A stretch of DNA of 64,000 bases from SAR202 cluster bacterium (lineage in GTDB: Bacteria; Chloroflexota; Dehalococcoidia; Lucifugimonadales; UBA1123): positions 10,832-74,831 of the forward strand of contig JASMDM010000003.1 of the NCBI GenBank assembly GCA_030752795.1, written 5' to 3'. Within the stretch, counting starts at the first letter, position 1, and every line of letters starts with the position of its first letter. The position numbers and the translations under genes are program-made. Below the pieces are notes generated by a model. That model was given only the letters and a program-made list of their open reading frames with translations. It was not told where the DNA came from and did not search any database. Shown here in pieces: positions 22,998 to 39,424 of the stretch.

Positions 22998-23582
22998 CTA
23001 GTCCCCGTCACCGCCGACCGGCACGCTCACGTCGGCCATGCCTTCCGCTCGGAGCTCTTGGAGCACCTTCACGACCTCTTCGTGCATGGTCCACGTCGAC
23101 TTGTAGACGACCCTGCCCGTTTTGTCGATGACGTAGATCATGTTGGGCAAGCCACCGAACATCTTGTGGATCGCCTCGTCATATCCGTCGATCAAAACCG
23201 GAACTTTCATGCCATGGTCCTCAACGAGCTCGCACGCGTAGCCTGTCTTGTGTTCATAACTCGTATGCTTTGAGTACTGCTCGAATCGCTTTCTACCAGC
23301 ATGAGGCTCCCGCATGTACACGTTCAAAATCTGGATGTTGCCCGCGAACTCCTCGGCGGTTTCTTCCACTACGGCAACCTGCCGCAGATAGGGGGGTCAG
23401 GTGATCGCGCCGAACTCAATCACAAGATGCTTCTTGCTCAAGAAGTCGGCCGCGTCGATCCAGTCGCCTTCCGTGGTTTGCAACCGGAACGTTGGAGCCT
23501 GGGAACTTGGTTCGATGATCGTTTTGAAGTCTTTAAAAAAGCCGCCTTGTTCTCGGGTTGACCTTCCTCCGGGCTGTCGCAA
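22998..23582 (-). CDS. Iodothyronine deiodinase-like thioredoxin-fold selenoprotein (UGA=Sec at 23397-23399)
   Basis: ORFs 23397..23582 and 22998..23369 share a frame and join through TGA: HLVIEFGAIT-U-PPYLRQV...NVYMREPH...PVLIDG...GGLPNMIYVIDKTGRVVY. SECIS-like hairpin follows the TGA; 5' end uncertain. Confidence 0.85.
23369..23387 (-). promoter_or_regulatory. Bacterial SECIS-like hairpin
   Basis: mRNA CUGCGGC-AGGUU-GCCGUAG; loop starts 17 nt after UGA, G at loop position 2. Confidence 0.75.
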
Positions 23583-36206: not shown

Positions 36207-36524
36207 TTGTATCTGATACGACGCATTTTCAACACCAAGCCCGGTGAGGCGCTAAACGTCGCGAACCTGTTGCATAAGCAGGCACAGCTCTATCACGACG
36301 CCGGACAGCGAGGCGAGTTCAGGGTCTCGTACAACGGCTACACGCTGCCAGGCGACCAGAATATCGTCGTGCTGGAGTGGACCGACGAGGCCATCCAATC
36401 GCCAGGGCGTCCGGGCAACGACCTGCCACAAGCGGCCCTCGAAGTCGGCGCGAAGGTTCGCCCGCTGATCGAGAGCCAACGCATTGAATTCATGGAGCTC
36501 CTGACGCCCGACCAGGTGGTCTAG
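36207..36524 (+). CDS. Small hypothetical protein (NIPSNAP/dimeric alpha-beta barrel-like)
   Basis: GGAGG RBS, TTG start, YLIRRIFNTKPG. Confidence 0.65.
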   Translation: MYLIRRIFNTKPGEALNVANLLHKQAQLYHDAGQRGEFRVSYNGYTLPGDQNIVVLEWTDEAIQSPGRPGNDLPQAALEVGAKVRPLIESQRIEFMELLTPDQVV

Positions 36525-38321: not shown

Positions 38322-38363
38322 GCGGGAGGTTTTCCCGCCTCCAACGGGACTCCCCTACGGATT
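38322..38363. repeat. Degenerate GTAG-type REP
   Basis: gcgggagg...tcccctacggatt, sharing both ends with 47129-47160. Confidence 0.5.
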
Positions 38364-38438
38364 ATCGCCAAGGTTCGCTGTTTTATTGGTCCGACACGAT
38401 GAATGTTACTTGGGAACAATGCATTTCGGAGGGTGTAT

Positions 38439-38852
38439 ATGGAATCGCCGTCAGAAGAGATAAAGCAGCTTGAAGGTTCGCAGACGATTGCGGTGTTCGG
38501 ATTTTCGCCCAACCCAGAACGGCCCAGCCATTATGTCGCCAAGTACCTTCAGGAAGTCGGGTATCGCATCATTCCGGTGAACCCGGCGCTTGAGGATGGT
38601 CTCGGCGAAAAGTGCTACCCGGACCTCGAATCGATCCCCGAGCCTGTCGACATGGTGGATGTCTTTCGCCGATCCGAATTCGTCGGGCCCGTCGTCGACG
38701 GCGCGATAGCAATCGGGGCAAAGTACATCTGGATGCAGGACGGCGTCGTGAACGAGGAGGCAGCGGTGCGCGCCAGGGATGCTGGGCTGTCCGTGGTCAT
38801 GGACAATTGAACGCTGCGGGTGCATCGTCGCCAGTTGGGCGACGCAAAATAG
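38439..38852 (+). CDS. YccU-type CoA-binding protein, probable selenoprotein (UGA=Sec at 38808-38810)
   Basis: TIAVFGFSPNPERPS, YRIIPVNP, VDMVDVFRRSE, IWMQDG. The TGA falls at the conserved Cys of VVMDRC; readthrough gives TLRVHRRQLGDAK*; SECIS-like hairpin follows. Confidence 0.82.
38826..38844 (+). promoter_or_regulatory. Bacterial SECIS-like hairpin
   Basis: CGUCGCC-AGUUG-GGCGACG perfect 7-bp stem; loop starts 23 nt after UGA, GU at loop positions 2-3. Confidence 0.68.
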
Positions 38853-39055
38853 GCCGGCGGCTTGGCAAACATATGTTTGGGGGTCTGCCTGCGCGGCTAT
38901 CTCAATACTGTGCCTCGCGTGGACCTGGCTCCCTAAAACCTCGGTCCGCCATGGGCGCTCTACACCCGTGTCCTTTCTCGGGGACACCACACAGCGCCGC
39001 CTCTGCCAAGTCAGGCGGCGCTGCTACTTTGCCGAATGTTGCCGGCGCACGTTAA

Positions 39056-39424
39056 CTAGTCCAGGATCGACTCCGTGTACAGGTCGAACCGTTGGCGAAT
39101 CATGTCGCAAGCCATTTCAAGCCCGTCCATCGCCTGCTCGGAGCTCGTGCCTTCAAGAAAAGTTCCCGTGATTCCGGACTCGTCGAAGCTAGCCGCGATT
39201 CGGGGCCTGTACAGCCACCGCGTGTACCCTCTGACCCAGTCGGCCAAGACGGGCGACGACTCCATGTTCAACTGTACCGCGTCGCCATTCGCGGCGTTGG
39301 ACGCTTCCAATCGAAAAGCGATCGATCCGGACTCGTCTTTCGCGCTGAGTCGGAACTCGATGCCGGCGTTTAGGAACGCTAGCTTCAGATTGATATCCGT
39401 TGATTCGTTTGTGCTCATGTCCAT
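39056..39424 (-). CDS. Hypothetical protein
   Basis: 122 aa ORF with coding-like composition and AAGG RBS. Confidence 0.55.
   Translation of the reverse strand: MDMSTNESTDINLKLAFLNAGIEFRLSAKDESGSIAFRLEASNAANGDAVQLNMESSPVLADWVRGYTRWLYRPRIAASFDESGITGTFLEGTSSEQAMDGLEMACDMIRQRFDLYTESILD

Follow-up and report, generated by a model that had tools for sequence, protein, structure and literature searches.

A gene in a 64,000-nucleotide stretch of DNA from a SAR202 cluster bacterium, called the window below, very probably encodes a genuine bacterial selenoprotein. Judging from comparative sequence data, selenocysteine (Sec) would replace in it the single invariant cysteine of a CoA_binding_2 protein.

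The gene and its product

The features of the gene are given below in positions of the window.

38428..38433, + strand: Shine-Dalgarno-like GGAGGG, read from the sequence, 5 nt upstream of the ATG
38439..38852, + strand: full CDS of the putative Sec-containing CoA_binding_2 (YccU-type) protein, 137 residues including U124, plus TAG, from translation
38808..38810, + strand: UGA, putative Sec codon for residue 124, aligned with the TGC/TGT Cys codons of homologues
38811..38849, + strand: 13-codon C-terminal tail TLRVHRRQLGDAK, read only if the UGA is decoded
38826..38844, + strand: SECIS-like hairpin, 7-bp stem 38826-38832 / 38838-38844, AGUUG loop 38833-38837, from sequence and folding
38850..38852, + strand: true stop TAG, from sequence and translation

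The start was placed at 38439 because of the GGAGGG upstream and the 123-aa length of public orthologues. An earlier note on this DNA had described an open reading frame ending in VVMDN-TGA at 38808-38810, a read-through continuation TLRVHRRQLGDAK closed by TAG, and a perfect 7-bp hairpin with its loop 23 nt after the UGA, and had expected annotation pipelines to shorten the product. The frame and its continuation are as described, and the exact coordinates of the hairpin are 38826-38844. The public records of Sec-form orthologues, named 'CoA-binding protein [SAR202 cluster bacterium]', do stop at 120/123 aa, with the key residue missing, against 137 residues for the read-through protein. The reading given here corrects the annotation of these SAR202/Dehalococcoidia records, which are cut to 120/123 residues.

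In Pfam, the read-through protein matches PF13380 (CoA_binding_2) with an E-value of 1.4e-41 and 142 bits against a cut-off of 22.8, and the match, which covers residues 16-129 and model positions 2-115 of 116, spans the UGA. The solved members of the family (2duw, 2d59/2d5a/2e6u and 1iuk) match with E-values from 2.3e-34 to 2.9e-24 and are aligned through the tail. The structure 2duw, which ends in VVMDRC, has an E-value of 2.3e-34 to the read-through protein, and 2d59 (PH1109) has one of 4.3e-30 in an alignment that reaches residue 135 and pairs the tail nCtlrvhrrqlgd with RCMMREHERLLGE. Relatives ending in VVMDRC plus a short His-containing helix, which the earlier note had described, are seen in these two alignments. 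Against the 144-aa PH1109, the read-through protein aligns from end to end. With a single domain, 137 residues and the C-terminal VVMDN-U-TLRVHRRQLGDAK, it is of the standalone YccU/PH1109 type, and it is predicted, by homology only, to bind CoA. The invariant Cys position closes the last strand (VVMDN-C), ahead of the short His-containing tail. It resembles the Cys-type proteins 2duw (Klebsiella/E. coli YccU-type), PH1109 (Pyrococcus) and TT1466 (1iuk, Thermus) in domain, length, VVMD-x-C and His-containing tail, and differs from them in the putative Sec in place of the invariant Cys and in the SECIS-type hairpin within the last 13 codons.

The UGA codon, the tail and the hairpin in relatives

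The codon at residue 124 alternates between TGA and Cys. A full-length orthologue is present in 24 of 41 related genomes, 8 with one in-frame TGA and 16 with none; the 8 TGA forms come from five genera, and in the codon alignment their TGA falls exactly on the TGC/TGT of the Cys orthologues, the nearest of which share 60-70% identity. A metagenome scan with patterns that leave out the Sec/Cys column found TGA in 77 of 80 loci (55 of 58 unique), and the Sec form is therefore common rather than rare among these closest loci. The column was likewise TGA or Cys in 80 further genome loci. Pooled over 184 loci, a number that includes duplicates and relatives, the column holds 119 TGA, 52 TGC and 13 TGT (65 Cys codons) and no other codon. 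The alternation of TGA and Cys with a downstream peptide and hairpin kept, which the earlier note had named as the pattern to look for, is thus present, and its proposal of Sec in place of Cys is supported; all the refutation tests that it had named were run, and none went against it.

The bases around the codon are also uneven. Of 88 unique Sec forms, 76 have U just before the Sec UGA, with Asp always written GAU (25/25), and 87 have A just after it; Cys forms write the preceding Asn as AAC in 12 cases and as AAU in 8. These flanking bases may reflect a context preference for Sec decoding. The Sec-type tail HRRRFGG also occurs in six ENA metagenome proteins (P0006-P0011), which are Cys forms of full length.

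The tail beyond the UGA behaves as a coding sequence. The 39 unique Sec forms from Dehalococcoidia have T, L/M, R, Q/E/V and H at codons +1 to +5. Up to six synonymous codons are in use at these positions, and the codon entropies are 1.72, 1.89, 1.99, 1.00 and 0.94 bits. Such constancy of the amino acids beside variable synonymous sites means that selection acts on the protein frame beyond the UGA. The conserved pattern of the tail in Sec forms is T-L-R-[EQV]-H-R-R-[RQ]-[FLY]-G. In a 30-sequence alignment (A2), the column residue Cys124 and His129 do not vary; more distant members of the family have Tyr in place of the His (tails VKIEYARLF and PKIDYPRLF).

The hairpin of the window, CGUCGCC-AGUUG-GGCGACG, has seven perfect pairs, with the loop beginning at the 23rd nt past the UGA. 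Folded singly, 38805-38860 has an MFE of -21.6 kcal/mol and a z of -1.61, and 17 of 200 shuffles are as stable, so that this value is not significant. A search of 38700-38950 against Rfam gave no family match at E <= 1. Since the hairpin by itself is not beyond chance, the case rests on comparative data.

In all 88 unique Dehalococcoidia-type Sec forms, the hairpin position and the GU at the loop start are kept, and 72 of them have the inner seven pairs complete. The 3-nt loop is GUU in 71, GUC in 13 and GUA in 4 of the 88 forms. Of 40 unique Sec forms, 35 have the loop start at the 23rd-24th nt past the UGA; the loop window of the bSECISearch model is 16-37 nt. One pair, 24:38, switches among CG (70), UA (8), UG (4) and GC (3) in the 88 forms. 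In alignment A1, the paired share of cells is 85.3%, compared with 26.6-58.3% when the partners are slid, and the covariation score of 0.137 compares with 0.070 for shuffled alignments and is reached by none of 500 shuffles, but the covariation is modest, with change on both sides in only two of eight pairs, and the shuffle controls overstate it because the Sec sequences are related.

Synonymous sites inside the hairpin are frozen in Sec forms only. The codon entropies there are 0.65, 0.29 and 0.31 bits for Arg +6, +7 and +8, 0.19 for Phe +9, and 0.68 and 0.23 for Gly +10 and +11, whereas Arg +3, which lies outside the hairpin, has 1.99 bits. In 26 Cys forms with a like tail, Arg +7 and +8 have 1.91 and 2.04 bits, Phe +9 0.99 and Gly +10 1.39. 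The mean local MFE is -14.1 kcal/mol in 40 Sec forms versus -8.7 kcal/mol in 56 Cys forms, with a Mann-Whitney p of 1.5e-11 that is overstated, the sequences being related. In L083, L096 and L102, three Cys forms that nest within the Sec forms, synonymous changes have removed the closing pairs.

Classical bacterial SECIS elements, such as those of E. coli fdhF and of Moorella, are coding-region hairpins that follow the UGA closely on its 3' side and have a small apical loop containing G-U. The hairpin described here shares this location and the small G-U loop; the loop reads G-GUC-U in 13 of the 88 Dehalococcoidia forms and is a GGUC tetraloop in one Planctomycetota form. Unlike the classical elements, the present hairpin has a short stem (7-8 bp) and no bulged U, and it is wholly contained in a 13-codon tail that ends 6 nt later; its binding by SelB is putative.

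A second lineage carries the codon at the same site. A Planctomycetales MAG encodes VVADS-TGA-IMVVHRMLMR with an 8-bp hairpin, CACCGCAU-GCUG-AUGCGGUG, and in the same MAG, the one Sec-form Planctomycetota genome searched for it, a tRNA-Sec scores 59.3 bits. A search of 31 relatives of this MAG gave 20 matches in 19 genomes, and in the 13 Planctomycetota loci examined, TGA stands at the column in three genomes and Cys in ten loci. The hairpins of these Sec forms differ from the Dehalococcoidia type; in two of the three, the loop starts at the 21st nt after the UGA, and the third (L157) has a different, 6-bp hairpin. A fourth Planctomycetota 'TGA' match (G052:C237) was rejected, as the locus is a Cys form and the TGA flagged in it is the normal stop of the gene. 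The same genome, G052, holds two Cys-form paralogues, L150 and L160. For SECIS models, it would be useful to have two lineages whose hairpins at this site differ in build.

The history of the column was viewed in a quick unrooted tree made from the 112 residues upstream of it, and thus from few columns. In this tree, the 39 Dehalococcoidia Sec forms lie in a clade of 67 that requires at least 7 changes of label, 3 of them forced by well-supported branches, and the Planctomycetales Sec form lies in the other major clade, with a support of 96. Two Cys forms from Fidelibacterota/Marinimicrobia MAGs (L097 and L116) are nested inside the Dehalococcoidia clade, which suggests lateral transfer among marine bacteria.

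Selenocysteine machinery and other readings of the UGA

The genome that holds the window is a 3.5-Mb MAG (91% complete, 5.6% contamination), and selA, selB, selC and selD, which the earlier note had proposed to look for, are all found in it. The tRNA-Sec scores 71.9 bits, and ARAGORN concurs (SeC, anticodon tca); selB (301.7 bits), selA (545.2 bits) and selD (366 bits) are over their curated cut-offs, and selD has a UGA of its own (CAG-U-AAK) with the hairpin GGCGCAG-GUU-CUGCGUC. Both selA and tRNA-Sec are over cut-off in 39 of the 41 related genomes, including all 8 TGA-form genomes, and the two genomes without selA over cut-off have no orthologue. Because nearly all of these genomes have them, the machinery is consistent with the Sec reading but not discriminating.

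At least eight further selenoprotein genes with in-frame TGA are present in the genome. Scanned ab initio for an in-frame TGA followed by a hairpin, this GC-rich genome yielded 191 candidates, most of them in non-coding frames; ten were picked by eye, and the eight regions put to Pfam all matched. Six of the eight genes fall in families where Sec forms are known (UGSC, two OsmC-like, AhpC/TSA, DUF3179 and deiodinase-like), and the seventh is a thioredoxin-like/AhpC-TSA plus NHL protein whose domain families have known Sec forms. The eighth is a MerB-like ORF (alkylmercury lyase, PF03243, E 2.1e-19; locus L144, G000:C73:1862-2527, - strand) with two in-frame TGA codons (SWFAQ-U-GFE and NRPYR-U-AGM). 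The MerB-like selenoprotein in the table of a recent review has a single CU motif (PMC13188914), and the double-Sec form may be a different subfamily. The hairpins of the eight genes have 7-10 bp and a small loop with GU or GG, and start 17-26 nt past the UGA. The window itself contains a second selenoprotein gene, at 22998-23582 (- strand); it is deiodinase-like/redoxin (PF00837, E 5.8e-12), with TGA at FGAIT-U-PPY and the hairpin CUGCGGCA-GGU-UGCCGUAG, whose loop begins 17 nt after the UGA.

Three readings would do away with Sec in this gene. The first concern with a MAG is that the codon is an assembly or sequencing error, or that the gene is a recent pseudogene, but the stretch or part of it is present in 20 runs, which belong to 15 studies and come from metagenomes of marine, seawater and hydrothermal-vent origin. 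Two of these runs, X11 and X12, are independent DNA assemblies from other studies that show no difference at 38808-38852 and differ only at 38327, 38333, 38339 and 38881, and TGA recurs in 119 loci of many genomes and metagenomes. The earlier note had considered that reads might hold TGC/TGT; the independent assemblies read TGA, and the chance of an error is next to negligible. The UGA could instead be an ordinary stop that yields a 123-residue product without the Cys and the tail, the hairpin being a terminator or regulatory RNA. Public pipelines do give such 120/123-aa records, the hairpin is near the 3' end of the gene, and TGA is the commonest stop in the genome (928 of 2226 long frames). 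This reading is nevertheless highly improbable in view of the purifying selection on codons +1 to +5 past the TGA, the match of the tail to the C-terminal stretch of solved homologues, and a column that is TGA or Cys only in the 184 loci; moreover, the in-frame tail is 10-23 codons long in all Sec forms, and no T-run follows the hairpin.

It is also very unlikely, if slightly less so than an ordinary stop, that the UGA is read through without selenium, by a near-cognate Trp/Cys tRNA or a local recoding signal, to give a full-length protein that is no selenoprotein. Sequence alone cannot show which residue is inserted, and the hairpin could in principle stimulate such read-through. The complete Sec machinery speaks against it, as does the specific replacement of Cys by UGA, which is the usual Sec/Cys pairing, and the stem length, small GU-containing loop and spacing of the hairpin match those of selD and the eight other selenoprotein genes. 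The stop usage of the 2226 long frames gives no sign of a genome-wide reassignment of TGA.

If the gene is a selenoprotein gene, as we hold to be very probable, its decoding would presumably follow the established bacterial Sec pathway. A ribosome reaching the UGA at 38808-38810 would meet, 15 nt downstream, the hairpin that recruits SelB with Sec-tRNA(Sec); Sec would be inserted, 13 further codons would be read, and termination would take place at the TAG. In the RNA-library run X17, a contig spans 38693-38890 with no mismatch, which is a weak hint of expression, as a contig from an RNA library is no proof of transcription. Contigs of another RNA run (X15) end at 38732, short of the TGA.

Published inventories and possible chemistry at the CoA thiol

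The selenoprotein family is apparently missing from published lists, as the earlier note had tentatively supposed, though some supplement may list it. Table 1 of a review of May 2026 holds 119 prokaryotic selenoprotein families (PMC13188914), and PF13380, YccU or a CoA-binding protein is not among them. In the main texts, supplements aside, of BSepDB (PMC13326102), GOS, deep-Sep (PMC12013277) and Peng 2016, 'CoA' is absent, and the Haft 2022 preprint has CoA in unrelated contexts only. Searches of full-text literature for selenoprotein plus CoA-binding gave nothing relevant, and those on SAR202 with selenocysteine, YccU and PF13380 gave nothing relevant by title. The known selenoproteome consists mostly of thioredoxin-like folds (PMC13188914), and the present family would add a Rossmann-type CoA-binding fold to it.

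Sec is used almost only where Cys does chemistry. Its presence at the single invariant Cys would therefore mark this residue as the active centre of the CoA-binding family, for whose Cys forms of the YccU/PH1109 type we know of no established function. A concrete hypothesis follows, namely chemistry at the CoA thiol, at a position homologous to the GPNC cysteine of CoA ligases. In a comparison by hhalign, a profile of 96 family members matched ACD-type acyl-CoA synthetases plus the SucD of the same genome with a probability of 98% and an E-value of 1.9e-13. In this profile alignment, VVMDN-C falls on ISGPN-C, and the Cys of LIGPNCPG in the SucD stands in the same column; BLASTP of the protein itself against this SucD gave no significant match (E = 13). 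The profile alignment indicates that the Sec/Cys column is homologous to the GPNC cysteine of the succinyl-CoA synthetase (SCS) alpha subunit and of NDP-forming acyl-CoA synthetases. In E. coli, we take this cysteine to be Cys123alpha, a residue of SCS that was reportedly the title subject of a study in 2007. In SCS, the GPNC Cys sits close to the thiol of CoA, with which it can make a disulfide.

The protein shares with SucD and the ACD-type enzymes a homologous CoA-binding domain, with the Sec/Cys column on the GPNC Cys that ends this domain. Unlike them, it is without ligase, phosphohistidine and ATP-grasp domains and ends 13 residues past the GPNC-equivalent column. There is no dedicated NCBIfam model for it; only the first domain of acyl-CoA ligase models is matched, weakly, with 43.5, 33.3 and 31.1 bits against cut-offs of 1200, 567 and 1300. 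As these scores are far under cut-off and the ligase domains are absent, the protein is not a ligase subunit.

A redox role, which the earlier note had proposed along with a catalytic one (for example Se-CoA chemistry), is one form that such chemistry could take. Sec124 would pass through a redox cycle in which it reacts with the thiol of bound CoA, and the resulting CoA-S-Se-protein selenenylsulfide would act on CoA disulfide, CoA persulfide or CoA-modified proteins, with the thioredoxin system recycling it. A redox cycle of Sec124 at the CoA thiol is a serious possibility that falls just short of being probable. More doubtful, and offered tentatively, is the broader view that YccU-type proteins, rather than binding CoA passively, are CoA-thiol redox enzymes with a catalytic C-terminal Cys/Sec, whose Sec form would reduce CoA disulfide, CoA persulfide or CoAlated proteins together with thioredoxin/thioredoxin reductase. 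If this broader view is true, it would point to a selenium-dependent CoA redox system in the abundant SAR202 of the deep ocean and to a function for a widespread orphan family. The protein has no conserved resolving Cys, and Cys59 is Ser in many Sec forms. Indirect support for a redox role comes from the homology to the GPNC Cys and from a TrxB-like gene (TIGR01292, 336.8 bits, just under the cut-off of 343.45; CATC motif) that immediately precedes the CoA-binding gene, in the same orientation, in 11 of the 96 unique loci. In this arrangement, seen in one Dehalococcoidia subclade, the TrxB-like gene is about 50-400 nt upstream, and nine of the loci are Sec forms (L066, L072, L075, L078, L088, L090, L101, L107 and L109), the other two being Cys forms of the adjoining clade (L096 and L102). 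In the window, the neighbours are a metallophosphoesterase gene and a divergent enoyl-CoA hydratase gene, not trxB. Many uncharacterized selenoproteins resemble thiol oxidoreductases or bear redox motifs and are most likely redox proteins (PMC13188914). The same review lists in its Table 1 a Sec-containing CoA-disulfide reductase, an FAD-dependent oxidoreductase (TIGR03385); the chemistry of this selenoprotein, like that proposed for the present one, is at the CoA thiol, and it shows Sec in CoA redox biology (PMC13188914). Unlike the present protein, it is a flavoprotein of about 440 aa with a UGxP motif; the folds are unrelated, and no flavin domain is found here.

The same homology would also fit a real selenoprotein in which Sec124 is an acyl-accepting nucleophile, forming a selenoester from an acyl-CoA thioester in a thioesterase or acyl-transfer reaction, perhaps helped by the His at +5, since the ligases with the GPNC Cys form acyl-CoA. 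His129 is invariant in the 30-sequence alignment, and the enoyl-CoA hydratase gene is the divergent neighbour in 26 of the 96 loci, including the window. However, this neighbour is not specific to Sec (7 Sec and 19 Cys loci), the His gives way to Tyr in the more distant members, and both the TrxB adjacency in 11 loci and the probable redox nature of most uncharacterized selenoproteins (PMC13188914) point the other way, so that we consider acyl chemistry unlikely.

No universal gene partner was found among the 96 unique loci, and the largest neighbourhood 'cluster' was discarded, as it consists of antisense ORFs of the gene itself. Two ORFs beside the gene in the window, at 39056-39424 (- strand, 122 aa) and 36207-36524 (+ strand, 105 aa), have no Pfam match. 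A pair of DUF1800 and DUF1501 genes lies downstream on the same strand in L068 (3532-5085), in L104 (5205-6335) and in 14-17 other loci. These genes are mostly beside Sec forms, in 15 of 17 and 13 of 14 loci, respectively, an adjacency that may reflect only shared ancestry.
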